From the NCBI RefSeq assembly GCF_046105845.1, contig NZ_CP151004.1: a stretch of 64,000 nucleotides of DNA. One strand, written 5' to 3'. Of this stretch, positions 17,496-36,761 are shown one piece after another. How positions within the stretch are numbered: the first letter of the stretch is position 1; the number at the start of each line of letters is the position of its first letter. Under the pieces are notes generated by a model that ran no database searches, was not told the origin of the DNA, and saw nothing but the letters and a program-made list of their open reading frames with translations. The translations under genes and the position numbers were made by a program. Origin of the DNA: Escherichia coli. GTDB lineage: Bacteria > Pseudomonadota > Gammaproteobacteria > Enterobacterales > Enterobacteriaceae.

Positions 17496-18130
17496 TGTTT
17501 TGCCGCCTTGATGAGGGTGGTTTTCACCGGGAAATAATCCGCGCCGAGATACTGTTCCGACTGGCGAATTTGCCCTTCGCTGTCGATCCAATAGCGGTTA
17601 TGCCAGCGCGCCTGGTCGGTGGAGACGTTTTCGTCCAGCACGCGAACCGGAGTTTCATCGCTGCCGACTTTGACGGTATCGGTGCCATCCCATTTGAAGA
17701 CTGAGCGTGCGGTGGCGTAGCGTACCTGCTGGTACTCGGTCCAGCCCATCGTGCGCGTCCAGGTTGCACCATCAACAATTTGTGCGGGTTTAATCAGCGG
17801 GTCGGCGGCAAGGTTATTCACTTCAATCAGGTTGTCGCCGCCAAGCAAAGTCTTCACCAGACGACCATGTTGTGTGACGAGAGTGGCCTGATCCTGAGTG
17901 ACCCATTTTTGTTGTCCGTCTTCAGCGAAGGCCAGCACCACAAACAATTGCGGCCCGCCATTAAGCTGCATGTACTGGCTGGCGTAGGGCATATTTTGAA
18001 TATCATCGTCCGTCAGCTGTACGCCTGGCGTGCCGAACAGACTGTCCCACAGTGAATTGCCCAGCTCTTTAGTCGTGGCTGAACAGGCCTGTAATAGCAG
18101 GCAGATAAGAATGAGTGCAGGTCGCTTCAC
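17492..18130 (-). CDS. yjbF: Lipoprotein of the yjbEFGH operon
   Basis: Probable GTG start at VKRPALILICLLLQACS (lipobox LQAC), about 212 aa; 4-nt overlap with yjbG. Confidence 0.7.
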   Translation of the reverse strand: MKRPALILICLLLQACSATTKELGNSLWDSLFGTPGVQLTDDDIQNMPYASQYMQLNGGPQLFVVLAFAEDGQQKWVTQDQATLVTQHGRLVKTLLGGDNLIEVNNLAADPLIKPAQIVDGATWTRTMGWTEYQQVRYATARSVFKWDGTDTVKVGSDETPVRVLDENVSTDQARWHNRYWIDSEGQIRQSEQYLGADYFPVKTTLIKAAKQ

Positions 18131-18242
18131 GACTCTTCTCCAGAGGGGCAGAATAACCACACCGGAGTGTGGTTATGGTAAATCCCTTCATATTTCAAGC
18201 CACAGATGCAATGACCCGAATTATTTTGGGATACATACTTTA

Positions 18243-18485
18243 TTACTGGGTACTGGTGGTCGTGGTTGTTGTGGTCCCGGTATTAGAACCATCACCGCCA
18301 CCGGTTGCCGCGAGCGCGACACCCACCGCCGAGCTTACGGTGCTGACGCTGGTCGCGGAGGAACTCCCCGCCGAAACCGACGTTGCTGCCGACCCTGCCG
18401 CTTCGCCCACCTGTACAGGTGCAGCCCACGCAGAAGTCGCCGCAAGCGCAGATATGGCAAAAATGCCATACAGAACTTTTTTCAT
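18243..18485 (-). CDS. yjbE: Secreted low-complexity Ser/Thr/Gly/Ala-rich protein
   Basis: 80-aa ORF; signal peptide [21 protein letters not shown]; ends in [15 protein letters not shown]. Confidence 0.8.
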
Positions 18486-18793
18486 AACAATTTCCCTTCA
18501 TTGAATGAATGGAGATTTACCCAAAAACATTTCGGGCGGGATCGAGTATACACAACTAAAGCATGCGAATTACGGTGTGGGGAATTAGCGATGGGGTTTT
18601 AGGATAATTGGAATGAATATCAAATATAAGTTTCAACTTATATATAAATAAGATTAAAAATCAAAAAGTTAAAATAGAATCAAAAATAATCAACCTACGT
18701 ATTTTCCGAAATCAATCACGATTAAAAATTTATTTTAGGATTAAACTCACAGCATGATTTCCGTTAAATCACAGACAAGGGGATTTATCTGAT

Positions 18794-18827
18794 AAAAAAT
18801 GCCGACATAACGTCGGCATTTTTATTA
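18794..18827 (-). terminator. Terminator downstream of pgi
   Basis: Hairpin atgccgacataacgtcggcat flanked by A/T runs on both sides. Confidence 0.55.
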
Positions 18828-18838
18828 AGGTTATTTAA

Positions 18839-20488
18839 TTAACCGCGCCACGCTTTATAGCGGTTAATCAGACCATTGGTCGAGCTATCGTGGCTGCTGA
18901 TTTCTTTATCATCTTTCAGCTCTGGCAGAATACGGTTCGCCAGTTGTTTACCCAGCTCCACGCCCCACTGGTCGAAGGTGAAGATGTTCAGAATCACGCC
19001 CTGAGTAAAGATTTTGTGCTCATACAGCGCAATCAACGCACCCAGGCTGAACGGAGTGATTTCGCGCAGCAGGATGGAGTTGGTCGGACGGTTACCTTCG
19101 AACACTTTGAACGGCACCACGTAGTCAAGCGTTGCCGGATCTTTACCCTGATCACGATATTCCTGCTCAACCACTTCGCGGGATTTACCAAACGCCAGCG
19201 CTTCGGTCTGAGCAAAGAAGTTAGACAGCAGTTTCTGGTGATGATCAGAGAGTGGGTTATGGGTGATAGCCGGGGCGATGAAATCGCACGGTACCATTTT
19301 GGTTCCCTGGTGGATCAGCTGGTAGAACGCGTGCTGACCGTTTGTGCCTGGTTCACCCCAGATAATCGGGCCAGTCTGGTAATCCACAACGTTACCGTTA
19401 CGGTCAACATACTTACCGTTGGACTCCATATTGCCCTGCTGGAAGTACGCCGCGAAACGGTGCATATACTGGTCATACGGCAGAATCGCTTCAGTTTCCG
19501 CACCAAAGAAATTGTTGTACCAGATGCCAATCAGCGCCAGCAGGACAGGCAGGTTTTTCTCGGCAGGCGTGGTGGAGAAATGCTTGTCCATCGCGTGTGC
19601 GCCAGAAAGCAGTTCAACAAAATTATCAAAGCCGATGGAGAGAACAATCGACAAGCCAATCGCTGACCACAAAGAGTAACGGCCGCCAACCCAGTCCCAG
19701 AACTCGAACATGTTGGCAGTATCAATACCAAACTCGCCAACGGCTTTGGCATTGGTTGAGAGCGCCGCAAAGTGTTTTGCAACGTGTTTTTCATCACCTG
19801 CCGCTTTCAGGAACCAGTCACGCGCGCTATGGGCGTTGGTCATAGTTTCCTGAGTGGTGAAGGTTTTAGAGGCTACCAGGAACAGCGTGGTTTCCGGGTT
19901 TACTTTTTTCAGCACTTCCGCGATGTGAGTCCCATCGACGTTAGAAACAAAGTGCATGTTCAGGTGATTTTTGTACGGACGCAGTGCTTCGGTCACCATG
20001 TACGGGCCGAGGTCAGAACCACCGATCCCGATGTTCACTACGTCAGTGATTGCTTTGCCGGTATAACCCTTCCACTCACCGGAAATAATCGCTTCCGAGA
20101 AGGTTTTCATCTTCTCCAGCACCGCGTTGACTTCTGGCATTACGTCTTTGCCATCAACCAGAATCGGGGTATTGCTACGGTTACGCAGCGCTACGTGCAG
20201 CACGGCGCGGTTTTCAGTGCGGTTGATCTTCTCGCCAGAGAACATCGACTTAATCGCGCCCGCCAGATCGCACTCTTTCGCCAGATCCTGTAATTTCGCC
20301 AGCGTCTCTTCAGTGATGCGGTTTTTGGAGTAATCCACCAGCATCTGATCGTCGAAGGTTGCAGAGAACTTAGAAAAACGATCGCCGTCTTTAGCAAAAA
20401 GATCGGCGATCGTAACGTCTTTCATTTCATCGAAGTGTTTCTGTAGTGCCTGCCAGGCAGCGGTCTGCGTTGGATTGATGTTTTTCAT
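18839..20488 (-). CDS. pgi: Glucose-6-phosphate isomerase
   Basis: Start at [19 protein letters not shown] (549 aa); full-length match to Pgi. Confidence 0.95.
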
Positions 20489-20704
20489 TAGCAATACTCT
20501 TCTGATTTTGAGAATTGTGACTTTGGAAGATTGTAGCGCCAGTCACAGAAAAATGTGATGGTTTTAGTGCCGTTAGCGTAATGTTGAGTGTAAACCCTTA
20601 GCGCAGTGAAGCATTTATTAGCTGAACTACTGACCGCCAGGAGTGGATGAAAAATCCGCATGACCCCATCGTTGACAACCGCCCCGCTCACCCTTTATTT
20701 ATAA

Positions 20705-20995
20705 ATGTACTACCTGCGCTAGCGCAGGCCAGAAGAGGCGCGTTGCCCAAGTAACGGTGTTGGAGGAGCCAGTCCTGTGATAACACCTGAGGGGGTGCAT
20801 CGCCGAGGTGATTGAACGGCTGGCCACGTTCATCATCGGCTACAGGGGCTGAATCCCCTGGGTTGTCACCAGAAGCGTTCGCAGTCGGGCGTTTCGCAAG
20901 TGGTGGAGCACTTCTGGGTGAAAATAGTAGCGAAGTATCGCTCTGCGCCCACCCGTCTTCCGCTCTTCCCTTGTGCCAAGGCTGAAAATGGATCC
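20705..20995 (+). promoter_or_regulatory. Lysine riboswitch (L-box) in the lysC 5' leader
   Basis: Long structured leader gtactacctgcgctagcgcaggccagaagaggcgcgttgcc...ggagcacttctgggtgaaaatagtagcg matching the remembered E. coli lysC leader. Confidence 0.75.
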
Positions 20996-21012
20996 CCTGA
21001 CACGAGGTAGTT

Positions 21013-22362
21013 ATGTCTGAAATTGTTGTCTCCAAATTTGGCGGTACCAGCGTAGCTGATTTTGACGCCATGAACCGCAGCGCTGATATTGTGCTTTCTG
21101 ATGCCAACGTACGTTTAGTTGTCCTCTCGGCTTCTGCTGGTATCACTAATCTGCTGGTCGCTTTAGCTGAAGGACTGGAACCTGGCGAGCGATTCGAAAA
21201 ACTCGACGCTATTCGCAACATCCAGTTTGCCATTCTGGAACGTCTGCGTTACCCGAACGTTATCCGTGAAGAGATTGAACGTCTGCTGGAGAACATTACT
21301 GTTCTGGCAGAAGCGGCGGCGCTGGCAACGTCTCCGGCGCTGACAGATGAACTGGTCAGCCACGGCGAGCTGATGTCGACCCTGCTGTTTGTCGAAATCC
21401 TGCGCGAACGCGATGTTCAGGCACAGTGGTTTGATGTACGTAAAGTGATGCGTACCAACGACCGATTTGGTCGTGCAGAGCCAGATGTAGCCGCGCTGGC
21501 GGAACTGGCCGCGCTGCAGCTGCTCCCACGCCTCAATGAAGGCTTAGTGATCACCCAGGGATTTATCGGTAGCGAAAATAAAGGTCGGACAACGACGCTT
21601 GGTCGTGGAGGCAGCGATTATACGGCAGCCTTGCTGGCGGAGGCTTTACACGCATCTCGTGTTGATATCTGGACCGACGTCCCGGGCATCTACACCACCG
21701 ATCCACGCGTGGTTTCCGCAGCAAAACGCATTGATGAAATCGCGTTTGCCGAAGCGGCAGAGATGGCAACTTTTGGTGCAAAAGTACTGCATCCGGCAAC
21801 GTTGCTACCCGCAGTACGCAGCGATATCCCGGTCTTTGTCGGCTCCAGTAAAGACCCACGCGCAGGTGGTACGCTGGTGTGCAATAAAACTGAAAATCCG
21901 CCGCTATTCCGCGCGCTGGCGCTTCGTCGCAATCAGACTCTGCTCACTTTGCACAGCCTGAATATGCTGCATTCTCGCGGTTTCCTCGCGGAAGTTTTCG
22001 GCATCCTCGCGCGGCATAATATTTCGGTAGACTTAATCACCACGTCAGAAGTGAGCGTGGCATTAACCCTTGATACCACCGGTTCAACCTCCACTGGCGA
22101 TACCTTGCTGACGCAATCTCTGCTGATGGAGCTGTCTGCACTATGCCGGGTAGAAGTGGAGGAAGGTCTGGCGCTGGTCGCGTTGATTGGCAATGACCTG
22201 TCAAAAGCCTGCGGCGTTGGCAAAGAGGTATTCGGCGTACTGGAACCGTTCAACATTCGCATGATTTGTTACGGCGCATCCAGCCATAACCTGTGCTTCC
22301 TGGTGCCCGGCGAAGATGCCGAGCAGGTGGTGCAAAAACTGCATTTTAATTTGTTTGAGTAA
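21013..22362 (+). CDS. lysC: Lysine-sensitive aspartokinase III
   Basis: 449-aa ORF; MSEIVVSKFGGTSVADFDAM; ACT domains at C-terminus. Confidence 0.95.
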   Translation: MSEIVVSKFGGTSVADFDAMNRSADIVLSDANVRLVVLSASAGITNLLVALAEGLEPGERFEKLDAIRNIQFAILERLRYPNVIREEIERLLENITVLAEAAALATSPALTDELVSHGELMSTLLFVEILRERDVQAQWFDVRKVMRTNDRFGRAEPDVAALAELAALQLLPRLNEGLVITQGFIGSENKGRTTTLGRGGSDYTAALLAEALHASRVDIWTDVPGIYTTDPRVVSAAKRIDEIAFAEAAEMATFGAKVLHPATLLPAVRSDIPVFVGSSKDPRAGGTLVCNKTENPPLFRALALRRNQTLLTLHSLNMLHSRGFLAEVFGILARHNISVDLITTSEVSVALTLDTTGSTSTGDTLLTQSLLMELSALCRVEVEEGLALVALIGNDLSKACGVGKEVFGVLEPFNIRMICYGASSHNLCFLVPGEDAEQVVQKLHFNLFE

Positions 22363-22371
22363 ACACAGTAT

Positions 22372-22410
22372 GGCCCGGAAGACATTATTTCGGGCCGTAT
22401 TGTTTTTCTT
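22372..22410 (+). terminator. Rho-independent terminator after lysC
   Basis: Hairpin ggcccggaagacattatttcgggcc followed by a T-run. Confidence 0.55.
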
Positions 22411-22614
22411 GTCATTATGCCCATAAATAAACGAGCCTGTACTCTGTTAACCAGCGTATTTATCGGAGAATAATTGCCTTTAATTTTTTTTCTGCATCTC
22501 TAATTAATTATCGAAAGAGATAAATAGTTAAGAGAAGGCAAAATGAATATTATCAGTTCTGCTCGCAAACGAATTCCCGTACACTGAACTCTCTGGCTCA
22601 CTGAGGGCACCATC

Positions 22615-22887
22615 ATGGCACTCCCCCGTATTACCCAAAAAGAGATGACTGAACGCGAGCAGCGTGAACTTAAAACACTGCTGGATCGGGCGCGGATTGC
22701 GCATGGTCGCGTACTGACCAACTCCGAAACCAACAGCATTAAGAAAGAGTACATCGATAAATTAATGGTCGAGCGTGAGGCTAAAGCGAAAAAAGCCCGC
22801 CAGTTAAAGAAAAAGCAGGCTTATAAACCGGATCCTGAAGCGTCATTTAGCTGGTCAGCAAATACGTCGACGCGCGGCAGGCGCTAA
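22615..22887 (+). CDS. yjbD: Small basic protein of unknown function
   Basis: 90-aa ORF MALPRITQKEMTEREQRELKTLLDRA...; position between lysC and rluF. Confidence 0.75.
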   Translation: MALPRITQKEMTEREQRELKTLLDRARIAHGRVLTNSETNSIKKEYIDKLMVEREAKAKKARQLKKKQAYKPDPEASFSWSANTSTRGRR

Positions 22888-22936
22888 TGAACAATCAACG
22901 CCTGAGATTTTCACTCGTCTGTGTGGACACAATCTT

Positions 22937-22974
22937 CCCCTCACCCTAACCCTCTCCCCGAAGGGGCGAGGGGA
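22937..22974. repeat. GC-rich palindromic intergenic element (Box C-like)
   Basis: cccctcaccctaaccctctccccgaaggggcgagggga; family name from memory. Confidence 0.4.
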
Positions 22975-23019
22975 CTGTCCGAGCACTTTTTGGACGTTTT
23001 CATCAGTCTGAGGCGTTAA

Positions 23020-23892
23020 TCAGCGTCCCTTCTTTTTACGCCCCGGCGAGGTAAAACGCTTACCGTTGGACGCCGGGCGACCGCCTTTTTCCGCCGTTTT
23101 TTCCATCTTAACGACTGGACGTTTGATGCCCGCCGTTTTCGGTTTGGTCTTCGTTTTAGGTTTTGCCTCGGAAGAGGAATTTTCGATGAGCTTAAAGAGG
23201 TCGATTAACTCATCGTCGGTTAAATCGCGCCACTCACCCAGCGGAATGCCGCTTAAACTGACGTTCATAATGCGCGTACGCTCCAGCTTTTTCACTTCGT
23301 AACCAAAGTGCTCGCACATGCGACGGATCTGACGGTTCAGTCCCTGCACCAGGGTAATGCGGAAGACAAACGGCGCTTCTTTTTTGACTTTGCACTTTTT
23401 CGTCACCGTCCCGAGGATCGGCACCCCCGCCCCCATACCACGAATAAATTCATCGGTAATCGGTTTATCGACCGTCACCAGATACTCTTTCTCATGATCG
23501 TTACCCGCACGGAGGATCTTATTCACCAGATCGCCGTGATTGGTGAGGAAAATCAGCCCCTGGGAGTCTTTATCCAGGCGGCCAATCGGGAACACGCGTT
23601 TGCTGTGGTTAACGAAATCGACAATGTTATCGCGCTCGCCATCTTCGGTGGTGCTGACAATACCGACGGGCTTGTTCAGGGCGATAAGTACCAAATCTTC
23701 GGCTTCCCGAGGCTCAATCAACTGACCGTTTACTTTCACAACGTCGCCGGGTTTCACCTGATCGCCAATGGTGGCTCGCTTGCCATTAAGGAACACATTG
23801 CCTTGCTCGATATAGCGATCCGCTTCGCGGCGTGAGCAAATTCCGCTTTCGCTGATGTATTTATTTAAACGGACTGATGAGTCGGGCAGCAT
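23020..23892 (-). CDS. rluF: 23S rRNA pseudouridine synthase F
   Basis: 290-aa ORF; S4 domain then RluA-type catalytic core ([10 protein letters not shown]); Lys/Arg-rich C-tail. Confidence 0.9.
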
Positions 23893-24239
23893 AAATTCTC
23901 CTGTAAAACGCGGAATATACCGTACCTCTTAGCGGGGAAAAACAGGGTTATGCGGCAACGTCGAAATTAAATGTGATCTGCCACGCCTTTTATCACAAAA
24001 GTGTCTCCGGAAGTACGATGCAAATTTGCCTGGCAAAATAAGGATAATCAACATATTACGAATCGCTGCACACCTGTGCTGATGACTACTACGCAGAGAA
24101 ACAAATGTGCAAGAGAAAGCGCTATTTCTCCCCATGCAAAGAGTGAAAAATCGCTTTGAAAGGCCATCATGATGGGGTTATATCAGATCAAGCGGTGAGA
24201 AAGCGTATTTGCACAAATGTGCAGAACCAGGAGGCGGCA

Positions 24240-25187
24240 ATGGAAAACAGTGACGATATCCGTTTGATTGTGAAGATTGCCCAACTCTATTACGAACAGG
24301 ATATGACGCAGGCGCAAATCGCGCGCGAACTGGGTATTTACCGCACCACCATCAGCCGCTTGCTTAAACGAGGCCGCGATCAGGGAATTGTCACCATCGC
24401 CATCAACTATGACTACAACGAAAATCTCTGGCTGGAGCAGCAACTGAAGCAAAAGTTTGGCCTGAAAGACGTTGTGGTGGTGTCGGGAAATGATGAGGAT
24501 GAAGAGACTCAACTGGCGATGATGGGGTTACACGGCGCGCAACTGCTGGATCGCTTGCTGGAGCCTGGCGATATTGTCGGTTTTTCCTGGGGTCGCGCGG
24601 TGAGCGCACTGGTTGAAAACTTGCCGCAGGCGGGGCAATCGCGGCAGTTAATCTGCGTACCAATTATTGGCGGACCGTCCGGTAAACTCGAAAGCCGCTA
24701 TCATGTAAACACATTAACCTACAGCGCGGCAGCGAAGTTGAAAGGAGAATCGCATCTCGCGGATTTTCCGGCTCTACTGGATAACCCCTTAATTCGTAAT
24801 GGGATCATGCAGTCTCAGCACTTTAAAACCATCTCTGCCTACTGGGATAATCTGGATGTCGCCCTGGTGGGAATTGGCTCACCGGCCATTCGTGACGGCG
24901 CTAACTGGCATGCGTTTTATGGTGGTGAAGAGAGTGACGACCTGAATGCCCGCCAGGTTGCTGGCGATATTTGCTCGCGCTTTTTTGATATTCACGGCGC
25001 AATGATTGAAACGAATATGAGTGAAAAAACACTCTCTATCGAAATGAATAAATTAAAGCAGGCACGATATTCCATTGGCATTGCCATGAGTGAAGAAAAA
25101 TACAGCGGAATTATTGGTGCACTGCGTGGAAAATATATTAATTGTCTGGTAACGAATAGCAGCACAGCTGAACTATTACTGAAATAA
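24240..25187 (+). CDS. sorC: SorC/DeoR-family transcriptional regulator of the sorbose operon
   Basis: Start at MENSDDIRLIVKIAQLYY with AGGAGG Shine-Dalgarno (315 aa); N-terminal HTH (MTQAQIARELGIYRTTISRLL) and sugar-binding C-domain. Confidence 0.8.
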   Translation: MENSDDIRLIVKIAQLYYEQDMTQAQIARELGIYRTTISRLLKRGRDQGIVTIAINYDYNENLWLEQQLKQKFGLKDVVVVSGNDEDEETQLAMMGLHGAQLLDRLLEPGDIVGFSWGRAVSALVENLPQAGQSRQLICVPIIGGPSGKLESRYHVNTLTYSAAAKLKGESHLADFPALLDNPLIRNGIMQSQHFKTISAYWDNLDVALVGIGSPAIRDGANWHAFYGGEESDDLNARQVAGDICSRFFDIHGAMIETNMSEKTLSIEMNKLKQARYSIGIAMSEEKYSGIIGALRGKYINCLVTNSSTAELLLK

Positions 25188-25256
25188 AAATCTTCCCGAT
25201 GTTTACCGTAATAAAAATTACGGCGGGTCCCTATTATCTAAAATCAGGAGTCTGTT

Positions 25257-26063
25257 ATGCAAACGTGGTTAAATTTGCAGGATAAAATCATTATCGTCAC
25301 CGGCGGCGCATCCGGTATTGGTCTGGCGATTGTAGAGGAATTATTAGCACAAGGCGCAAACGTACAGATGGTCGATATTCACGGTGGCGATGGTCAATAT
25401 GAAGGTCATAAAGGCTATCAGTTTTGGCCGACCGATATTTCCAGCGCCAAAGAGGTAAATCATACGGTAGCGGAAATTATCCAGCGTTTTGGTCGCATCG
25501 ACGGTCTGGTCAATAACGCCGGGGTCAATTTCCCGCGTCTGCTGATCGATGAGAAAGCGCCTGCCGGGCAGTATGAACTCAACGAAGCTGCATTCGAAAA
25601 AATGGTCAATATCAACCAGAAAGGCGTTTTTCTGATGTCGCAGGCGGTGGCGCGACAAATGGTCAAACAACATGATGGCGTGATTGTGAATGTTTCCTCA
25701 GAAAGTGGGCTGGAAGGCTCAGAAGGCCAAAGCTGTTACGCCGCGACCAAAGCCGCGCTCAATAGCTTCACGCGCTCCTGGTCGAAAGAGCTGGGTAAGC
25801 ACGGTATCCGTGTGGTCGGTATCGCGCCAGGGATTCTGGAAAAAACAGGACTGCGCACGCCGGAATATGAAGAAGCGCTGGCGTGGACGCGCAATATCAC
25901 CGTCGAGCAGCTGCGTGAAGGCTATACCAAAAATTCCATTCCTATTGGGCGCGCCGGAAGATTAGCAGAAGTGGCTGATTTTGTTTGTTATCTGCTGTCT
26001 GAACGCGCCAGCTATATCACCGGAGTAACCACTAACATTGCAGGCGGCAAAACGCGCGGCTAA
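25257..26063 (+). CDS. sorD: Short-chain dehydrogenase (D-glucitol-6-phosphate dehydrogenase-like)
   Basis: 268-aa SDR with TGGASGIG NAD-binding motif and Y-x3-K (YAATK). Confidence 0.8.
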   Translation: MQTWLNLQDKIIIVTGGASGIGLAIVEELLAQGANVQMVDIHGGDGQYEGHKGYQFWPTDISSAKEVNHTVAEIIQRFGRIDGLVNNAGVNFPRLLIDEKAPAGQYELNEAAFEKMVNINQKGVFLMSQAVARQMVKQHDGVIVNVSSESGLEGSEGQSCYAATKAALNSFTRSWSKELGKHGIRVVGIAPGILEKTGLRTPEYEEALAWTRNITVEQLREGYTKNSIPIGRAGRLAEVADFVCYLLSERASYITGVTTNIAGGKTRG

Positions 26064-26072
26064 GGAGGCTTT

Positions 26073-26480
26073 ATGGTCAATGCCATTTTTTGTGCCCACG
26101 GCAAATTAGCTTGCGCCATGCTGGAATCGGTTCAGATGGTTTACGGCAACGCCAATGTTGAAGCCGTTGAATTTGTACCCGGTGAGAACGCCAATGACAT
26201 TGTGGCAAAGCTGGAAAAGTTAGTGAGCATTCACAATCAAGACGAATGGCTGATTGCCGTGGATTTACAGTGCGGCAGCCCGTGGAATGCGGCAGCGATG
26301 CTTGCGATGCGCAATCCTCGTCTGCGGGTAATCAGCGGCCTTTCTCTGCCGCTGGCGCTCGAACTGGTTGATAACCAGGACAGCATGAATGTTGATGAAC
26401 TGTGTGAACACCTGACGCAAATCGCAAAGCAATCCTGCGTCGTCTGGAGACAGGTGGCAACGGCAGAGGAGGATTTCTGA
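26073..26480 (+). CDS. sorF: PTS mannose-family EIIA component (sorbose)
   Basis: 135 aa; EIIA-Man fold signature with His near the N-terminus (FCAHGKLA). Confidence 0.8.
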   Translation: MVNAIFCAHGKLACAMLESVQMVYGNANVEAVEFVPGENANDIVAKLEKLVSIHNQDEWLIAVDLQCGSPWNAAAMLAMRNPRLRVISGLSLPLALELVDNQDSMNVDELCEHLTQIAKQSCVVWRQVATAEEDF

Positions 26481-26974
26481 TGAACATTACGCTCGCCCGC
26501 ATTGATGACCGCCTGATCCACGGTCAGGTCACTACCGTCTGGTCGAAAGTGGCTAACGCCCAGCGCATTATTATCTGCAATGACGAAGTTTATAACGATG
26601 AAGTTCGCCGGACATTATTGCGTCAGGCTGCGCCACCGGGAATGAAGGTTAACGTGGTCAATATTGAAAAAGCCGTCGCGGTTTATCACAACCCGCAATA
26701 TCAGGACGAAACCGTTTTTTATCTTTTCACTCGCCCACAGGATGCCTTAGCGATGGTTCGCCAGGGGGTAAAAATAGGCACCCTGAATATTGGCGGCATG
26801 GCCTGGCGGCCCGGTAAAAAACAGTTAACCAAAGCGGTTTCATTAGATGATGATGATATTAACGCATTTCATGAGTTAAATAATCTTGGCGTCATACTGG
26901 ATTTACGCGTCGTAGCGTCAGATCCCTCAATCAATATTATCGACAAAATAAACGAACAGTTAATCGCAAATTAA
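26480..26974 (+). CDS. sorB: PTS mannose-family EIIB component (sorbose)
   Basis: 164 aa; RIDDRLIHGQV phospho-His motif; ATG overlaps the sorF stop (TGATG). Confidence 0.8.
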   Translation: MNITLARIDDRLIHGQVTTVWSKVANAQRIIICNDEVYNDEVRRTLLRQAAPPGMKVNVVNIEKAVAVYHNPQYQDETVFYLFTRPQDALAMVRQGVKIGTLNIGGMAWRPGKKQLTKAVSLDDDDINAFHELNNLGVILDLRVVASDPSINIIDKINEQLIAN

Positions 26975-27039
26975 ATAATAGCGCCTGTGTACATATGCTT
27001 TAACAGGCAGGGATGACGACACTTAAAAGGTGACAAATC

Positions 27040-27837
27040 ATGGAAATAAGTACCCTACAAATTATTGCTATATTTCTTTTTTCCTGTATTGCCGGAATGG
27101 GCAGCGTGCTGGATGAATTTCAGACTCATCGCCCGTTAATTGCCTGTACGGTGATTGGTTTAATTCTCGGTGATTTAAAAACCGGAATTATGCTCGGTGG
27201 TACGCTGGAATTGATAGCTCTCGGCTGGATGAACGTCGGCGCGGCGCAATCTCCGGATTCCGCGCTCGCCAGCATTATCTCCGCCATTCTGGTTATCGTT
27301 GGTCAGCAAAGCATCGCCACCGGTATCGCCATCGCGTTGCCTGTGGCTGCTGCAGGCCAGGTACTGACGGTGTTTGCCCGCACCATCACCGTAGTGTTCC
27401 AGCACGCGGCGGATAAAGCAGCGGAAGAGGCGCGGTTTCGCACTCTCGATATTCTGCATGTCTCCGCGCTTGGCGTGCAGGCGCTGCGCGTTGCTATTCC
27501 GGCACTGATTGTCTCGCTGTTCGTCAGCGCCGATATGGTCAGCAATATGTTAAACGCCATTCCCGAATTTGTGACCCGAGGACTACAGATTGCTGGCGGT
27601 TTTATCGTGGTGGTCGGTTACGCCATGGTGCTACGTATGATGGGTGTGAAATATTTGATGCCTTTCTTTTTCCTCGGTTTCCTCGCAGGTGGCTACCTCG
27701 ATCTCAGTCTGCTGGCGTTCGGTGGCGTCGGCGTGATCATGGCCCTGGTCTACATCCAGCTAAATCCACAGTGGCGTAAAGCTGAACCTCAACTCCAGGC
27801 CACCGCCTCCACCGCCCTTGACCAACTTGACGATTAA
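27040..27837 (+). CDS. sorA: PTS mannose-family EIIC component (sorbose)
   Basis: 265-aa polytopic membrane protein in EIIC position. Confidence 0.8.
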   Translation: MEISTLQIIAIFLFSCIAGMGSVLDEFQTHRPLIACTVIGLILGDLKTGIMLGGTLELIALGWMNVGAAQSPDSALASIISAILVIVGQQSIATGIAIALPVAAAGQVLTVFARTITVVFQHAADKAAEEARFRTLDILHVSALGVQALRVAIPALIVSLFVSADMVSNMLNAIPEFVTRGLQIAGGFIVVVGYAMVLRMMGVKYLMPFFFLGFLAGGYLDLSLLAFGGVGVIMALVYIQLNPQWRKAEPQLQATASTALDQLDD

Positions 27838-27847
27838 CGGAGCCATC

Positions 27848-28672
27848 ATGGAACAGAGAAAAATTACACGCAGCGATCTGGTGAGCATGTTTCTGCGCTC
27901 CAACCTGCAACAGGCGTCCTTTAACTTTGAACGTATTCACGGGCTGGGTTTTTGCTACGACATGATCCCCGCCATCAAGCGACTTTACCCAGTAAAAGAG
28001 GATCAGGTTGCGGCACTCAGGCGACACCTGGTGTTCTTCAATACCACGCCAGCCGTATGTGGCCCGGTCATCGGCGTCACTGCCGCCATGGAAGAGGCGC
28101 GGGCCAACGGCGCGGAAATTGATGACGGTACCATTAACGGCATCAAAGTCGGTCTGATGGGACCATTGGCAGGAGTTGGCGATCCACTGGTCTGGGGAAC
28201 GCTGCGCCCGATTACCGCCGCGCTCGGCGCATCTCTGGCACTTTCGGGCAACATTCTCGGCCCGCTGCTGTTTTTCTTTATTTTCAACGCGGTGCGTCTG
28301 GCGATGAAGTGGTATGGCCTACAACTCGGCTTTCGCAAAGGGGTGAATATCGTCAGCGATATGGGCGGGAATGTGCTGCAAAAACTCACCGAAGGCGCGT
28401 CGATTCTCGGACTGTTTGTGATGGGCGTGCTGGTCACCAAATGGACGTCAATCAACGTACCGTTGGTGGTTTCACAAACGCATGCCGCCGATGGCTCCAC
28501 CGTCACCATGACCGTGCAGAACATTCTCGACCAACTTTGCCCTGGTTTGCTGGCGCTCGGTCTGACGCTACTGATGGTTCGTCTGCTCAACAAAAAAATT
28601 AACCCGGTATGGCTGATTTTCGCCCTGTTTGGCTTAGGGATTATCGGCAATGCGCTGGGCTTCCTGTCCTGA
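27848..28672 (+). CDS. sorM: PTS mannose-family EIID component (sorbose)
   Basis: Start at MEQRKITRSDL with GGAG Shine-Dalgarno (274 aa); EIID-like membrane protein. Confidence 0.8.
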   Translation: MEQRKITRSDLVSMFLRSNLQQASFNFERIHGLGFCYDMIPAIKRLYPVKEDQVAALRRHLVFFNTTPAVCGPVIGVTAAMEEARANGAEIDDGTINGIKVGLMGPLAGVGDPLVWGTLRPITAALGASLALSGNILGPLLFFFIFNAVRLAMKWYGLQLGFRKGVNIVSDMGGNVLQKLTEGASILGLFVMGVLVTKWTSINVPLVVSQTHAADGSTVTMTVQNILDQLCPGLLALGLTLLMVRLLNKKINPVWLIFALFGLGIIGNALGFLS

Positions 28673-28723
28673 TTCTTCGCCCCGGCACGACTGCCGGGGC
28701 CATCGCTCAACATGAGGTGGTTT

Positions 28724-29953
28724 ATGAAAACAACAGCTCTGCGTCTTTATGGTAAACGTGATTTACGCCTGGAAACCTTTGATCTTCCTGAAATGCAGGA
28801 GGATGAAATCCTCGCGACGGTGGTCACCGACAGCCTGTGCCTCTCTTCCTGGAAAGAGGCCAATCTGGGTGAAAACCATAAAAAAGTACCCGACGATGTG
28901 GCGACCAACCCCATCATCATCGGCCACGAGTTTTGCGGCGATATTCTGGCCGTGGGTAAAAAGTGGCAGCACAAATTCCAGCCGGGCCAGCGCTATGTGA
29001 TTCAGGCCAACCTGCAATTGCCGGATCGCCCGGATTGCCCCGGCTACTCCTTCCCGTGGGTGGGCGGTGAGGCCACACATGTGGTTATCCCAAATGAGGT
29101 TATGGAACAAGATTGCCTGCTGGCATACGACGGCGAAACCTATTTTGAAGGCTCGCTGGTTGAACCGCTTTCCTGCGTGATTGGCGCGTTCAACGCCAAC
29201 TATCATCTTCAGGAAGGTAGTTATAACCACACGATGGGGATTCGCCCGCAAGGGCGCACGCTGATCCTCGGCGGCACCGGACCAATGGGACTGTTGGCGA
29301 TTGATTATGCGCTGCATGGACCCGTTAACCCGTCGCTGCTCGTCATTACCGATACCGACAACGATAAATTGAGTTATGCGCGCAAGCACTATCCATCAGA
29401 ATCGCAAACACTGATTCATTATCTCAATGCCACTGATGCAGCATTTGATACGTTAATGGCGCTGAGTGGCGGTCACGGCTTCGATGATATTTTCGTCTTT
29501 GTGCCTAATGAAGGACTGGTGACTCTCGCCTCTTCCTTGCTGGCGACAGATGGTTGCCTGAATTTCTTCGCCGGACCGCAGGATAAACATTTCAGCGCGC
29601 CAATTAATTTCTACGATGTGCATTATGCATTTACCCACTACGTGGGCACGTCAGGCGGCAATACCGACGACATGCGCGCAGCGGTCAAATTGATTGAAGA
29701 GAAAAAAGTGCAGGCCGCAAAAGTGGTAACACATATTCTTGGGCTGAATGCCGCGGGCGAAACCACGCTTGAATTGCCTGCCGTCGGCGGCGGCAAAAAG
29801 CTGGTGTATACCGGGAAATACCTGCCGCTTATGTCACTCACGCAGATTCAGGATCAAGCACTGGCGGCAATTCTGGCGCGTCATCAGGGGATCTGGTCCG
29901 GTGAGGCGGAGCAATATCTGCTCACTCATGCAGAGGCAATTTCCCATGATTAA
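28724..29953 (+). CDS. sorE: Zn-dependent medium-chain dehydrogenase (L-sorbose-1-phosphate reductase-like)
   Basis: Start at MKTTALRLYGK with GAGG Shine-Dalgarno; GHEFCGDI zinc-ADH motif and GGTGPMG Rossmann motif. Confidence 0.8.
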   Translation: MKTTALRLYGKRDLRLETFDLPEMQEDEILATVVTDSLCLSSWKEANLGENHKKVPDDVATNPIIIGHEFCGDILAVGKKWQHKFQPGQRYVIQANLQLPDRPDCPGYSFPWVGGEATHVVIPNEVMEQDCLLAYDGETYFEGSLVEPLSCVIGAFNANYHLQEGSYNHTMGIRPQGRTLILGGTGPMGLLAIDYALHGPVNPSLLVITDTDNDKLSYARKHYPSESQTLIHYLNATDAAFDTLMALSGGHGFDDIFVFVPNEGLVTLASSLLATDGCLNFFAGPQDKHFSAPINFYDVHYAFTHYVGTSGGNTDDMRAAVKLIEEKKVQAAKVVTHILGLNAAGETTLELPAVGGGKKLVYTGKYLPLMSLTQIQDQALAAILARHQGIWSGEAEQYLLTHAEAISHD

Positions 29954-30113
29954 TCGCGCTACTTAACTCTGCATGTCGCTGGCTGGTCGCCGCGGCAACT
30001 TCGCGACCTGATGTGCGGCTGATTGCTGAAGCGGCCCAATGTACACGAGAAGGATAAAAAAACATCAGCGCCTTAAGGGGCGCTCAAATTGGTGGCAAAG
30101 TACACATTGTTTA

Positions 30114-30218
30114 TGCCGGATGCGGAATGAAGCCTTATTCGGCATACATAATCTCGAAAATTCAATATATTGCAGTTATCTGGTAGGACTGGTAAGCGTA
30201 GCGCATCAGGCAATGCTG
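30114..30218. repeat. REP/BIME pair at the right edge of the sor block
   Basis: tgccggatgcggaatgaagccttattcggcatac and ggtaagcgtagcgcatcaggcaatgc. Confidence 0.6.
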
Positions 30219-30335
30219 TGTTTGTCATCAGTCTCAGCGCCCGGTGCAATACGTGACATCGTGAGCCATGTCAGTAAGTGGTTAAATTCGCAGTGGTAGC
30301 ATGCCTTCCGTGATTTCTTACTAACCGGAGAAGTA

Positions 30336-31025
30336 ATGGAACTGCTTTTATTGAGTAACTCGACGCTGCCGGGTAAAGCCTGGCTGGAACATGCACTGCC
30401 GCTAATTGCTGAACAGTTGCAGGGTCGCCGCTCAGCGGTGTTTATCCCTTTCGCTGGCGTAACGCAGACCTGGGATGATTACACAGCGAAAACGGCTGCG
30501 GTTCTCGCTCCGCTGGGTGTTTCTGTCACCGGTATTCATAGCGTTGTCGATCCCGTTGCTGCGATTGAAAATGCTGAGATCGTGATTGTCGGCGGCGGTA
30601 ATACTTTCCAGTTGCTGAAACAGTGCCGCGAGCGCGGGCTGCTGGCACCAATTACTGACGTGATTAAACGTGGCGCGCTGTATATTGGCTGGAGCGCTGG
30701 CGCTAACCTTGCTTGCCCAACCATTCGTACCACCAACGATATGCCGATTGTCGATCCGCAAGGTTTCGATGCGCTGAATCTGTTCCCGTTGCAAATCAAC
30801 CCGCACTTCACCAACGCGCTGCCGGAAGGCCATAAAGGTGAAACCCGTGAACAGCGTATTCGCGAACTGCTGGTCGTCGCGCCAGAACTCACAATTATTG
30901 GTCTACCGGAAGGTAACTGGATCACAGTGAGTAAAGGTCACGCAACGCTGGGTGGCCCGAACACCACTTATGTGTTTAAGGCTGGTGAAGAAGCGGTGCC
31001 GCTGGAAGCGGGTCACCGTTTTTAA
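30336..31025 (+). CDS. pepE: Alpha-aspartyl dipeptidase (peptidase E)
   Basis: 229-aa [24 protein letters not shown]...; S51 peptidase with catalytic Ser in GWSAGAN. Confidence 0.9.
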
Positions 31026-31069
31026 ATGAATTGCCGGGGGCAACGCCGCCCGGCATCCCGTGCACGGTA

Positions 31070-32701
31070 TTAATACTCGTCCCGTCCTTCATCTTCATCC
31101 GGCTGTTCCAGCACACTGTAAGCCACCGAACAAAACAGCGAGTTCAGACGCTGCATATCTCCCAGTAAGCCTAAATGTAGCGAACTGGTTTCAATGCTCT
31201 GCACGTTTTGCTGATGCAGGCGATCGACGTGGGCGTGGGAATAGCGGCGATTAAGAATGCGAAAACGATGCTTGCTGCGGCGCAAACGACGGGCGCTGGT
31301 AACATCGCCAGAGAAGAAAACCGACATTGCCAGTTTTAAATTACTGAGCAATTGCTCATAGAGCGCATCCAGTTCCTTCAAGCCATCAAGCGAAAATGCC
31401 CGCCGTGCAGCCAGCGATTTGTCGGCAATTTCACTACCCATGCGCTCGACGATATCGGAGGCCTGTTCAAGGTTTAGCGACATTTCGATGATCTCCGCCC
31501 AGCGGCGCGACTCTTCTTCTGCCAGTTCCTCTTTTGGCATTCGCGCCAGATAAAGTTTAATCGCGGTATAGAGCACGTTGATATCATCCGCCAGCTTGCG
31601 CAGCTCTTTCTCCTGCCGTGGCTCGCCGTGCATCACTTTATTCAACCCTTCCATCATCTGTTCCATGGCGTCGCCAATGCGCAGGGTTTCGCGCGCGGCG
31701 TTCGCCAGAGCAAGCGTGGGCGTATCCAGCGCGCTGACATCCAGATGTTTAGGCCGTAGCTGGGTATCCAGTTCCGGTTCATCGCGAATAATCGTTTTGC
31801 AAAACCGTGCCATCGGGTCAACAAATGGCAGCATGACCAGGCAACGTACAAGGTTGTAGAAGACGTGGAAATAGATCACCAGTTCCGCTTTTGGCAATGA
31901 CAACTTCCCCATTGTCTCTGCCAGCAAATGGACAAACGGCAGGATAATCAGGCTACCCACCAGCTTAAACAGCAGACTACCCAGCGCGACACGGCGGGCT
32001 GCGGCATTGGCGGCACTGTTGTTGAGCATCGCCAGCAGGCCGGAACCGAGGTTAGCACCAATCACCAGACAGAGCGCCACGGGGAAGGAGATAATGCCTG
32101 CAGCGGTCAGAGTCGCGGTCAGCAGTACAGCAGCAAGGCTGGAGTAGCTGATAATGGCGAACATCGCGCCAATCAGCGCATCCAGCAGAATATCGCCGGT
32201 CAGCGAGGCAAAGATCACCTGAACGCCGTTTGCCTGGGTGATCGGCGTTACGGCCTGCACAATCAACTCCAGCGCCAGTAAAATCAGCCCAAGACCAATA
32301 CCGACGCGGCCCAGTTGCCCGGCGCGTGACTGTTTGCGTCCGAGGAAAAAAATCACGCCGATAAAAATAAGTAATGGTGACAGCCAGGATAAGTCGAAGG
32401 TGAGAATACGCGCCATTAGCGCCGTCCCGACATCTGCACCCAGCACAATCACCAGAGCCGGTGCGAGGGCTACCAGATCCTGAGCGACGAACGAGGTCAC
32501 CAGCATGGTGGTGGCATTACTGCTCTGTACCAGTGCGGTAACGCCGATCCCCGCGCAAAAGGCGAGCGGCTTTTTTTCGACGCTCCGGCTAAGGACAGTA
32601 CGCAAACGCGCGCCGAAGACGCGCATTACGCCGGTTCGAACAATATGAGTCCCCCAGACCAGCAGGGCGACGGCAGAAAGCAGGTGAAGCAGCGTTAACA
32701 C
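31070..32701 (-). CDS. yjbB: Na+/phosphate cotransporter-family membrane protein
   Basis: 543-aa ORF; polytopic N-domain plus PhoU-like C-domain; convergent with pepE. Confidence 0.85.
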   Translation of the reverse strand: MLTLLHLLSAVALLVWGTHIVRTGVMRVFGARLRTVLSRSVEKKPLAFCAGIGVTALVQSSNATTMLVTSFVAQDLVALAPALVIVLGADVGTALMARILTFDLSWLSPLLIFIGVIFFLGRKQSRAGQLGRVGIGLGLILLALELIVQAVTPITQANGVQVIFASLTGDILLDALIGAMFAIISYSSLAAVLLTATLTAAGIISFPVALCLVIGANLGSGLLAMLNNSAANAAARRVALGSLLFKLVGSLIILPFVHLLAETMGKLSLPKAELVIYFHVFYNLVRCLVMLPFVDPMARFCKTIIRDEPELDTQLRPKHLDVSALDTPTLALANAARETLRIGDAMEQMMEGLNKVMHGEPRQEKELRKLADDINVLYTAIKLYLARMPKEELAEEESRRWAEIIEMSLNLEQASDIVERMGSEIADKSLAARRAFSLDGLKELDALYEQLLSNLKLAMSVFFSGDVTSARRLRRSKHRFRILNRRYSHAHVDRLHQQNVQSIETSSLHLGLLGDMQRLNSLFCSVAYSVLEQPDEDEGRDEY

Positions 32702-32920
32702 GAGTTCAGGTTCTCCTTATCGTTATATGTTCCTGAAGCAATTGAATGACCAAAGGACCGGAAACACGCTGACTGGCATCTTTACTGTGCCTTTTGACCT
32801 TCGTTTTTCCGGCTAAGATTATTCCAGCCTGATTCCAGTATAAGTGTTTCATATTAATAAAGAGACAGGGCACTCATTGAGCGCCCTGTTTGTTGTAAGG
32901 AAAAGTGACAGATTTGTGAA

Positions 32921-35900
32921 TCAGTCCGCGTCATACCCCAGATTCGGTGCCAGCCAGCGCTCAACATCTGAGACGCTCATACCTTTACGGCGGGCATAGT
33001 CTTCAACCTGATCGCGCTGGATTTGCGCCACCGCGTAATACTTGCTGTCCGGGTGGCTGAAGTACCAACCCGAAACCGATGCACCAGGCCACATGGCGAA
33101 AGATTCTGTGAGTTTCATGCCAGTGTGTTTTTCCACTTCCAGCAGCTCCCAGATGTTGGCTTTTTCCGTATGTTCCGGGCAGGCCGGGTAGCCCGGTGCC
33201 GGACGGATGCCCTGGTAGTTTTCGCGGATCAGTTCTTCGTTGCTGAGGTTCTCGTTCGGCGCATAGCCCCAGTAGACTTTACGCACACGCTCATGGAGAT
33301 ACTCCGCAAAGGCTTCGGCTAAACGATCAGCAAGGGCTTTCACCATGATTTTGTTGTAATCATCGTGCTGCGCTTCAAAGGCATCAGCCAGTGCGTCCTC
33401 TTCCAGCCCGCCAGTCACGGCAAATGCGCCGATGTAATCTGCTTTACCAGAAAGCTTCGGCGCAACGAAGTCAGCGAGACAGTAGTTAGCGAATCCCGTT
33501 TTTTCGGTCTGTTGACGCAGATGGTGGCTGACGTTGATCACATGGGTGCGCGTTTCGTCACGGTAGATTTCAATGTCATCGCCCACACGGTTTGCCGGGA
33601 ACAGCCCCACCACGCCACGCGGATTCAGCGTTTTTTCGGCGCTTAATTTATCCAGCATGTCATTGGCGTCTTTAAACAGACGCTGCGCCTCAACGCCCAC
33701 CACTTCATCTTCCAGAATGCGCGGATACTTCCCGGCCAGCGACCAGGTCATAAAGAACGGTGTCCAGTCGATGTAATTACGCAGCGTTTCGATGCTGGCT
33801 TCGACTTCCTGCACGCCGAGACGGTGCGCCACCGGCGGCGTGTAAGCCTGCCAGTCAAAAGCGAAATCGTTATCGCGCGCCGCTTCCAGCGTGACCGGTG
33901 GTGTGCGTGGTTTCTTGCGCCCGTGCTGAATACGCACGGTTTCGTACTCCTTGCGGGTACGAGCGACAAAATCATCACGCTGAGTATCGGAAAGCAGCGC
34001 CGCCACCACACCAACGGTGCGCGATGCGTTCTGTACATACACCGTCGGGCCGCTGTAGTTCTGCTCAATTTTCACCGCCGTGTGCGCTTTTGAGGTGGTC
34101 GCGCCGCCAATCAGTAACGGAATGGTGAAGCCCTGACGCTCCATCTCTTTCGCCACGTTAACCATCTCGTCCAGCGACGGCGTGATAAGCCCCGAAAGTC
34201 CAATCAGATCAGCATTCACTTCTTTAGCGGTACGGAGAATTTTTTCCGCAGGCACCATCACGCCGAGATCAACAATTTCGTAGTTGTTACATTGCAGCAC
34301 CACGCCAACGATATTTTTACCGATATCGTGGACGTCGCCCTTCACTGTAGCGATCACCATCTTGCCGTTGGTTTTGCCCTGCTCTTTGCTGGCTTCAATA
34401 AACGGTTCGAGATACGCCACCGCCTGTTTCATGACGCGCGCCGATTTCACCACCTGCGGCAGGAACATTTTGCCTTCGCCAAACAGATCGCCGACCACGT
34501 TCATACCGTCCATCAACGGGCCTTCAATCACTTCAATCGGGCGCGTAGCCTGCTGGCGTGCTTCTTCGGTATCCTGCTCGATAAACTCGGTAATGCCTTT
34601 GACCAGCGAGTATTCCAGACGTTTATTCACTTCCCACGAGCGCCACTCCGCCTGCTGGGCGTTAGCGGTGTCGTCGGTTTTGCTGCCGCGATATTTCTCG
34701 GCAAGCTCCAGTAAACGCTCAGTGCCATCGTCGCGACGGTTAAGAATCACATCTTCCACCGCGTCGCGCAGTTCAGCGGGTAGGTCGTCGTAAATCGCCA
34801 GTTGCCCGGCGTTGACGATCCCCATATCCATGCCATTGCGAATAGCGTAGTAGAGGAACACCGCGTGAATGGCTTCGCGCACCGGATCGTTACCACGGAA
34901 TGAGAAAGAAACGTTAGATACGCCGCCGGAGATCAGCGCGTGCGGCAGCTCACGTTTGATGTCTTCACACGCGCCAATAAAGTCCTGCGCATAGTTGTTG
35001 TGCTCTTCAATGCCGGTGGCGACCGCGAAGATGTTCGGGTCGAAGATGATATCTTCTGGCGGGAAGCCAACCTCTTCGGTGAGGATTTTGTACGCCCGAC
35101 GGCAAATCTCGATTTTCCGTGCGCGGGTATCGGCCTGCCCCTGTTCGTCAAAGGCCATTACCACCACTGCCGCACCGTAACGACGCAACAATTTCGCGTG
35201 ATGGATAAAAGCGTCGACGCCTTCTTTCATCGAAATAGAGTTAACAATGCCTTTGCCCTGGATACACTTCAGACCTTTTTCAATGACATCCCATTTTGAG
35301 GAGTCGATCATAATCGGCACGCGAGCGATATCCGGTTCACCGGCAATCAGATTGAGAAAACGCACCATCGCCGCTTCGGCATCGAGCATCCCTTCATCCA
35401 TGTTGATATCGATAATCTGCGCGCCGTTTTCCACCTGCTGGCGGGCCACATCCAGTGCCTCGCTGTATTTCTCTTCTTTGATCAGGCGCTTGAACTTAGC
35501 GGAACCGGTGACGTTGGTGCGTTCACCCACGTTCACAAACAGGCTATCTTCGCCAATGTTCAGCGGCTCCAGGCCGGACAAACGGCAGGCTACGGGGATT
35601 TCCGGCAGTTTGCGCGGCGCTAATCCTTCTACTGCACGACTCATCGCGGCAATATGTTGTGGCGTGGTGCCACAGCAGCCGCCGACGATATTGAGAAAGC
35701 CCGCTTGCGCCCATTCACGTATCTGTTTTGCCATCGTGTCGGCGTCGAGATCGTACTCACCAAAGGCGTTGGGTAGCCCGGCGTTCGGGTGCGCTGTGAC
35801 GTAGCATTCCGCAATCCGTGATAATTCCTGCACGTACTGGCGCAGTTCGTCTGGCCCCAGCGCACAGTTAAGGCCGAAAGTCAGCGCTTCGGCGTGGCGC

Positions 35901-36604
35901 AGAGAGTTATAAAACGCTTCGGTGGTCTGCCCGGAGAGCGTGCGCCCGGAGGCGTCGGTGATGGTGCCGGAGATCATAATCGGCAGCTCAACGCCCAGCG
36001 CTTCAAACTCCGTTTTCACCGCAAAGACCGCCGCTTTGGCGTTAAGGGTGTCGAAAACGGTTTCAATCAGGATCAGATCCGCACCACCTTCCACCAGCGC
36101 TTTGGTGGATTCGCGATAGGCCGCCACCAGCTGGTCAAAAGTGATGTTGCGGAATGCCGGATCGTTTACGTCCGGAGAAATAGACGCCGTGCGGTTGGTC
36201 GGGCCGAGAACACCGGCAACGTAGCGCGGTTTCTCCGGCGTGCGCGCGGTCCACTCATCAGCACAGGCGCGCGCCAGTTTCGCCGCCGCAAAGTTGATTT
36301 CCGCCGACAGGGATTCCATCTGGTAATCCGCCATCGCAATGGTTGTGGAGTTGAAGGTGTTGGTTTCGATGATATCCGCGCCCGCTTCAAAGTAGGCGTT
36401 GTGGATAGCGGCGATCACTTCCGGTTTACTGAGTACCAGCAGGTCGTTGTTGCCTTTGAGGTCGCATGGCCAGTTGGCAAAGCGTTCACCACGAAAATCG
36501 GCTTCGTTCAGTCGATAGCTCTGGATCATGGTGCCCATACCGCCGTCCAGCACCAGAATACGTTCATTTAACTGCGCACGCAGTTGTTCCACTTTGCTGC
36601 TCAC
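32921..36604 (-). CDS. metH: Cobalamin-dependent methionine synthase
   Basis: 1227 aa from a probable GTG start (V)[24 protein letters not shown]; B12-binding DxHxxG motif (GDVHDIGKN). Confidence 0.95.
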
Positions 36605-36761
36605 ACTTGCTCCCGACACGCTCAACCCAGATTTAATAAAAATTCAACAAACCATACTGGCATAAACGCATCTGTGGTAAAAGCGACCACCACGCAACAT
36701 GAGATTTGTTCAACATTAACTCATCGGATCAGTTCAGCAACTATTGCATTAGCTAACAATA

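Follow-up and report, generated by a model that had tools for sequence, protein, structure and literature searches.

The 382-bp spacer that appears to separate sorE from pepE (positions 29954-30335 of the window, i.e., the whole 64,000-nucleotide stretch of Escherichia coli contig NZ_CP151004.1 analysed here) is very probably the 3′ end, now decayed, of an ancestral sorbose cluster with eight genes that was inherited vertically, and not an insertion junction. Its content is an ordinary mix of a pseudogene remnant, an operon-end hairpin, a BIME-1 element, and the promoter of the neighbouring gene, from which we draw two modest new points: sdhL appears to be an ancestral eighth gene of the cluster, and E. 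coli genomes lacking sor most likely reflect a deletion. An earlier, sequence-only reading of this DNA had already recognised a GC hairpin after sorE and two REP units just upstream of pepE. The latter hold up as the Y and Z1 units of a BIME-1 (30114-30147 and 30183-30212), and the former lies exactly at 30067-30084, though not directly after sorE, the 104 nt that follow this gene (29954-30057) being the remnant of sdhL. The features are as follows (L numbers denote loci of other genomes).

23928-23959, no strand: left breakpoint zone between sor-positive and sor-negative genomes, rluF-sorC intergenic; clean homology stops at 23927, with weak similarity (76%) to ~23959
28724-29953, plus strand: sorE, encoding L-sorbose-1-phosphate reductase; no later gene of the cluster is intact in this allele (annotated in RefSeq at the near-identical locus L003; open reading frame list and family scan)
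29946-30003, plus strand: 5′ fragment of sdhL, 58 nt, its ATG overlapping the sorE stop (aligns with L004 7354-7411)
30004-30057, plus strand: 3′ fragment of sdhL, 54 nt, to the original stop TAA at 30055-30057 (aligns with L004 8113-8166)
30065-30072, plus strand: left copy of the 8-bp direct repeat TCAGCGCC, flanking the segment of hairpin arm and BIME
30067-30084, no strand: end-of-cluster stem-loop AGCGCC/TTAAGG/GGCGCT (fold, terminator scan, conservation in relatives)
30085-30113, plus strand: post-hairpin spacer, in E. albertii part of a tandem 147-bp unit
30114-30147, plus strand: Y-type REP, degenerate, TGCCGGATGCGGAATGAA-GCCTTATTCGGCATAC (fuzzy consensus match; 4 substitutions and 1 deletion)
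30148-30182, plus strand: L linker with an IHF-consensus-like core, ATTCAAtataTTG, at 30160-30172 (exact match of AAATTCAATATATTGCAG)
30183-30212, minus strand: Z1-type REP, inverted, GTAGGACTGGTAAGCGTAGCGCATCAGGCA (2 mismatches to the Z1 consensus, 0.00 expected by chance)
30234-30241, plus strand: right copy of the same 8-bp repeat
30242-30254, no strand: right breakpoint zone between sor-positive and sor-negative genomes; homology resumes at 30246 with mismatches and is clean from 30255
30255-30335, plus strand: conserved pepE upstream block with a CRP/FNR-type half-site pair, cGTGAgccatgTCAg, at 30260-30274 (alignment of alleles and relatives)

Synteny of the sorbose cluster and its eighth gene

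In the window the genes run lysC-yjbD-rluF, then sorC sorD sorF sorB sorA sorM sorE, then pepE, then yjbB-metH. A SorE-anchored scan, in which each bacterial species was represented by a single genome, found loci in E. whittamii, E. albertii, Escherichia sp. MOD1-EC7003, the divergent 'E. coli' SCPM-O-B-8794, Pseudocitrobacter, Citrobacter, Klebsiella, Raoultella, and Enterobacter, and nearly all of them, spanning at least six genera, carry the order rluF-sorCDFBAME-sdhL-variable spacer-pepE-yjbB. Nucleotide identity to the window is alike for the sor genes and their flanks (~77-85% in Citrobacter and Klebsiella, ~87-96% in other Escherichia), and the G+C content of the sor block (47-55%) resembles that of the flanks. 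Synteny in at least six genera, combined with divergence in step with the flanks, argues that the sor block is ancestral at this site and that sor-negative E. coli have lost it. The sor operon has been reported in >86% of genomes per phylogroup, except A (9.6%) and B1 (12.1%) (PMC12817954), and this concentration of absence fits a loss in the A/B1 lineage. Vertical inheritance is, for Escherichia, the best fit to these data, albeit no proof. Separately, two small hypothetical genes are annotated between yjbB and metH in the near-identical strain ECA64 (L003 10964-11776, compared with window 31070-36625), where K-12 has none.

The sequence-only reading had instead taken the sor block as acquired, while observing that no integrase or tRNA was visible. 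The observation stands: there is no tRNA within 18000-36000 and no integrase among the open reading frames of the window, all of which are core genes. The acquisition does not, since outgroup synteny and flank-like divergence and G+C point to a deletion polymorphism. Further, the locus lacks the marks of a genomic island, its site being occupied in at least six genera and free of integrase, tRNA, target-site duplication, and atypical composition. An islet gained horizontally between rluF and pepE, with the REP/BIME pair marking the insertion boundary, is therefore very improbable as an account of the E. coli locus and is largely refuted by outgroup synteny; other Escherichia species also carry sor with the same hairpin and BIME, and the E. 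coli genomes without it are concentrated in phylogroups A and B1.

What such an islet does have in its favour comes partly from Pseudocitrobacter. In this genus (L006, L007, and L077, compared with window 21013-36625), the sor genes are 87-95% identical to those of E. coli at the nucleotide level, i.e., as close as the sor genes of other Escherichia species, while lysC, pepE, and yjbB reach 80-82%. The contrast between ~90% in sor and 80-82% in the flanks suggests, on identity along the locus, an inter-genus allelic replacement whose right crossover would fall in the sdhL-pepE interval that holds the REPs in E. coli, and the pattern implies that the sor cluster can move between genera by homologous replacement.

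Some scan loci gave partial tblastn matches only, namely for sorE in E. albertii (L043 1517-2768) and MOD1-EC7003 (L046 9001-10226) and for sorD in SCPM-O-B-8794 (L008 4068-4598); the cluster may be decaying independently in these three.

The first 104 nt after sorE are best understood from the ST648-type allele (L004), where an intact sdhL of 270 amino acids directly follows sorE, its ATG overlapping the sorE stop. This protein matches the shikimate-5-dehydrogenase-like family PRK12550 (E 1.3e-140, 467 bits, cut-off 306), and both ends of the window copy are collinear with this intact family member at the orthologous position, which identifies the window copy as a pseudogene. Two lesions disable it: a CAA to TAA nonsense codon at 29964-29966 in the 5′ fragment, and a 701-bp internal, frame-shifting deletion whose junction (30003/30004) shows 0-1 nt of microhomology. 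The same 701-bp junction is found in all 2,681 genomes with a window-type spacer, and both lesions are common to O157:H7, NU14 (B2), and EC18, so they are older than the split of these lineages. Intact sdhL was found in 177 E. coli genomes, with copies that are all at least 99% alike.

The L-sorbose operon of Klebsiella pneumoniae and E. coli was reportedly defined by Sprenger, Wehmeier and Lengeler as sorCDFBAME. The window has the same seven genes in the same order and chromosomal neighbourhood, but almost all relatives add to this seven-gene description a conserved, translationally overlapping eighth gene, of which most E. coli keep a remnant. A recent study found sdhL adjoining sor, intact and sorbose-induced in ST648 and absent from the other STs studied, and described it as an ST-specific insertion 'upstream' of the operon (mSystems 2025, PMC12817954). 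In our comparison, however, the gene comes right after sorE on the downstream side, its start overlapping the sorE stop; the comparison across genera marks it as ancestral, and other E. coli have kept both its ends around the 701-bp deletion. Judged from these alignments, sdhL appears to be the ancestral eighth gene of the cluster, surviving as a remnant in most E. coli, and no ST648-specific insertion.

The stem-loop at the end of the cluster

The stem-loop AGCGCC-TTAAGG-GGCGCT fills 30067-30084 exactly, with five G-C pairs in its 6-bp stem, and its fold with flanks reaches -13.0 kcal/mol when read on the plus strand (z -2.3) and -11.7 kcal/mol when read on the minus strand (z -3.1). Of the two strands, a terminator consensus scan called the minus strand alone, on which GATGTTTTTT comes after the hairpin; the plus strand continues as CAAATTGG, has no T-run, and was not called. 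For the sor transcript, the G+C-rich stem-loop of a Rho-independent terminator is present and the U-tract immediately 3′ of the stem is absent, so that in Escherichia the hairpin may be a poor intrinsic terminator for sor. T-rich plus-strand tails follow the hairpin in some relatives (e.g., Citrobacter MGH106 and R. ornithinolytica).

The hairpin itself is widespread. A (G)AGCGCC...GGCGCT(C) stem lies 5-20 nt past the sdhL stop in 16 species of six genera, with variable loop and flanks and with stem changes that are one-sided and G-U-compatible only. Because the relatives compared show no compensatory pairs in the stem, sequence conservation alone could explain the hairpin. A convergent ccdB stops exactly there in Klebsiella, Citrobacter, and P. 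vendiensis, which makes the hairpin look like a shared bidirectional end signal; in K. grimontii, Citrobacter spp., and P. vendiensis this gene belongs to a ccdA-ccdB pair (Pfam 3e-24 and 6e-24). Given this distribution, the hairpin is an ancient, conserved operon-end element rather than an insertion scar, and likely a bidirectional terminator or a 3′-end protector.

A different account, which we consider unlikely although less so than the islet, is that the hairpin is a relic ccdB terminator of a lost ccdAB pair with no present role, and the BIME a neutral, selfish gap-filler. The minus-strand-only terminator geometry and the ccdB genes ending at the hairpin are what one would cite for it. 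That geometry, however, is partly recent, the minus-strand T-run owing something to an A-run expansion specific to E. coli, and the stem is kept both in species never showing an adjacent ccdAB (Raoultella, Enterobacter sp.) and in Escherichia long after the loss of ccdAB, being intact in all 2,681 genomes of the window type. A conserved operon-end signal thus remains the reading we prefer for the hairpin.

As a side observation, a chromosomal ccdA/ccdB pair convergent to sor lies between the hairpin and pepE in Klebsiella grimontii (L016 11064-11674) and Pseudocitrobacter vendiensis (L007 11062-11669), the post-hairpin sequence of several Citrobacter suggests the same arrangement, and sor-negative E. 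marmotae retains a decayed ccdB there (L094 8452-8667). The spacer at 30085-30113 was considered as a remnant of the ccdB 3′ end and rejected, with 17 of 18 local alignments to six relatives at shuffle level. Wider scans of the interval gave little: an Rfam search of 29700-30500 at a permissive E-value returned two chance-level matches (E 3.6 and 4.4) far under the gathering scores and thus no known RNA family, no sigma-70 promoter was found in 29800-30450, the fold of the whole spacer (z -1.2) indicates no global structure, and the small open reading frames of the spacer (26-86 amino acids) overlap the sdhL pseudogene and the REPs.

As to roles, the stem-loop, together with the REP stem-loops behind it, would most likely terminate the sor transcript and/or shield its 3′ end, and the stem-loop could keep transcription from passing between sor and pepE either way. 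The hairpin of the relatives would act as a terminator shared with the convergent ccdAB toxin-antitoxin pair; in Escherichia ccdAB is gone and a BIME-1 stands in its place. The REPs between malE and malF act as 3′ mRNA stabilisers and partial terminators. Like such stabilisers, the window REPs stand at the end of a sugar-utilisation operon, right behind its final gene and a G+C hairpin, but the gene upstream of them is now a pseudogene. Roles in stabilising or terminating mRNA 3′ ends and in IHF binding are established for REP/BIME generally (PMC3333891). A sor fragment from CFT073 gives DH5alpha growth on L-sorbose (PMC2831201); its primers map to 23894-23921 and 29954-29983 and so exclude hairpin and BIME, which are thus dispensable for the pathway itself. 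That the cloned operon works in this way is a further point for the relic account.

The BIME-1 upstream of pepE

By definition, a BIME-1 joins a Y and an inverse Z1 REP through an L linker that is long and conserved and often carries an IHF site; it occurs in single copies (PMC3333891). The element between the sdhL remnant and pepE has this composition, i.e., one Y REP, one inverse Z1 REP, and a long conserved L linker, in extragenic DNA and as a single copy at the locus in E. coli. Its 35-bp linker contains AAATTCAATATATTGCAG at 30158-30175, and the expected number of chance matches to the Z1 and L consensus was 0.00-0.05 per window. The only other match to AAATTCAATATATTGCAG in the window falls inside a second BIME-1 (Y REP, L linker, and inverted Z1 REP) at 508-608, and a hairpin with a T-run lies beyond this second element at ~620-645. 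Within the linker, ATTCAAtataTTG agrees with WATCAANNNNTTR at 12 of 13 positions, as read from the sequence, and the linker probably binds IHF at this putative site.

Compared with the BIME-1/RIP elements of Gilson, Bachellier and colleagues (summarised by Ton-Hoang et al. 2012, PMC3333891), the arrangement is the same tail-to-tail Y/Z1 with an L linker and IHF-type motif, but the window copy has a degenerate Y REP and a weakened Z1 stem. The Y REP still forms a stem-loop of -16.3 kcal/mol (z -3.8), while the Z1 stem folds no better than shuffled sequence (z +0.25). The E. coli BIME is decaying: its Y REP carries five changes, and its Z1 stem fails to beat the shuffled fold. This visible decay of both REPs suits the gap-filler part of the relic account. 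The current RefSeq K-12 table lists no REP/RIP features in the region, and the typing therefore rests on consensus matching and on the published definition (PMC3333891); with the locus missing from K-12, the element should also be absent from K-12-based REP catalogues.

Orthologues are better preserved. The Y REP of E. whittamii is a perfect consensus copy and that of E. albertii perfect or nearly so, and E. whittamii, MOD1-EC7003, and SCPM-O-B-8794 each have one orthologous BIME, preceded by an intact sdhL and by this hairpin; the element is thus older than E. coli. The E. albertii type strain (L043 3602-4177) carries ~3.9, i.e., about four, tandem copies of a 147-bp unit made of post-hairpin spacer and BIME-1, and this array of BIME plus 45 bp of flank departs from the description of BIME-1 as a single-copy element. 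In P. faecalis, a perfect-consensus BIME-1 (Z1, L, Y; L077 11086-11182) lies right after the conserved hairpin in reverse orientation relative to Escherichia, with ccdA remnants behind it.

Breakpoints, alleles, and what the locus means

A census covered 5,426 complete E. coli genomes. The sor block was present in 2,865, of which 2,681 had the window-type sorE-pepE spacer and 177 an intact sdhL with neither the right hairpin arm nor the BIME, these two spacer types leaving 7 sor-positive genomes over; the sor-negative genomes shared one uniform empty allele spanning 812 bp. Alignment to two empty-allele references (K-12-like L001 and NCTC11476, L002) places the breakpoints in the rluF-sorC intergenic region and at 30242-30254, with 6,327 bp in the window against 95 bp in the empty allele.

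The sequence-only reading had named the REP/BIME pair as a possible insertion boundary and called for such an alignment. The interval does hold the right edge of the missing DNA, and sor-negative genomes have no REP pair here, so the outcome that this reading had named as refuting it did not arise. The breakpoint, however, is neither in nor at a REP, but 30-40 bp to the right of the pair, against the conserved pepE upstream block, so that, given synteny in at least six genera as well, the pair is very unlikely to mark the boundary of an insertion. The suggested search for target-site duplications found none at the two sor-positive/sor-negative junctions, and the exchange of 6,327 bp for 95 bp is a replacement. 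No direct repeat had been visible, which is borne out at the sor junctions but not within the interval, where the 8-bp TCAGCGCC flanks the segment of hairpin arm and BIME.

These data also complete the case on the islet. The REP pair does lie in the last 140 bp of strain-specific DNA missing from sor-negative genomes, and REP sites are documented IS targets and recombination substrates (PMC3333891); against this count the position of the breakpoint beyond the pair, the lack of target-site duplication, integrase, tRNA, and compositional shift, and the 95 bp of other sequence standing in place of sor, which is no clean insertion. The sor-positive/sor-negative difference in E. coli is most likely one deletion or replacement, and not an acquisition.

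Of the 95-bp segment (L001 2406-2500), ~45-80 nt have no convincing match. Derivation from the sor block was rejected, as 10-11-nt chance matches only were found, and similarity to the ccdA 5′ end and its upstream sequence (E. marmotae, K. grimontii) is weak, 13 of 300 and 8 of 300 shuffles reaching the score and the MAFFT alignment being unconvincing. An ancestral CTTTCCAGAAGCAATG motif, also present in E. marmotae and Citrobacter, survives in the empty allele but not in the window type; the empty allele hence is no simple deletion derivative of the window-type haplotype. Other sor-negative relatives came to lack sor by different routes: in E. marmotae a decayed ccdB separates rluF from pepE, C. 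koseri (L096 8773-9000) has a 227-bp spacer with apparent remnants of ccdB and of ccdA-upstream sequence, and Salmonella enterica (L086 7240-7779) a DUF2058 gene between rluF and pepE.

The block directly beyond the right-hand breakpoint, 30255-30335, does not differ among the three E. coli alleles and can still be recognised in Citrobacter, Raoultella, Klebsiella, and Salmonella. The gene behind it, pepE, is cAMP-induced (PMC9765429) and FNR-activated, with a ChIP peak (PMC3688515), and the literature on an experimentally defined pepE promoter consists of this genome-scale CRP and FNR evidence only. Control by CRP and FNR may act through the candidate motif cGTGAgccatgTCAg. The deletion or replacement would have stopped at this functionally constrained block, and we infer that constraint on the pepE promoter, rather than the REPs, sets the end of the variable region.

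A third allele concerns the BIME and not the sor block. The ST648-type allele (L004) reads CATCAGCGCCTT|GTTTGCCA, i.e., it is without the right hairpin arm and the BIME, which form the segment between the TCAGCGCC repeats; since both hairpin arms are ancient, this armless allele is the derived one. The repeat accordingly belongs to a BIME indel. That the ST648-type allele lives without right arm and BIME is the last point for the relic account, which we still judge unlikely beside a conserved operon-end signal.

The stretch between the hairpin and pepE is, in any case, a REP-prone and rearrangement-prone spot. E. coli and E. whittamii have a single ~147-bp module, and E. albertii has about four; the ST648-type allele has none and shows one TCAGCGCC at the junction. 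In P. faecalis the module is reversed, and it coincides with the right crossover of the inter-genus sor replacement. We regard it as a tentative possibility, and a minority one, that the stretch up to the pepE promoter is an active BIME-1-associated rearrangement site and not a passive spacer. If so, BIME-1 elements, described as static single copies, could be mobilised or amplified (by TnpA-REP or slippage), and three old haplotypes (with BIME, without it, and empty with a ccdA-derived segment) would persist or be exchanged across Escherichia.

Together, these results leave the understanding of REPs, terminators, and sugar operons unchanged. The breakpoint against the pepE block suggests that neighbouring promoters limit where indels end, and those who annotate such genomes should be prepared to find a pseudogene, a conserved hairpin, and a BIME-1 within an apparent 382-bp spacer. 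The 'ST648-specific insertion' of the literature would be a retained ancestral gene, of which most E. coli carry an unannotated remnant. Finally, the sorbose locus is a lineage and pathotype marker in E. coli, and its absence is to be scored as a deletion and not as a missing islet.
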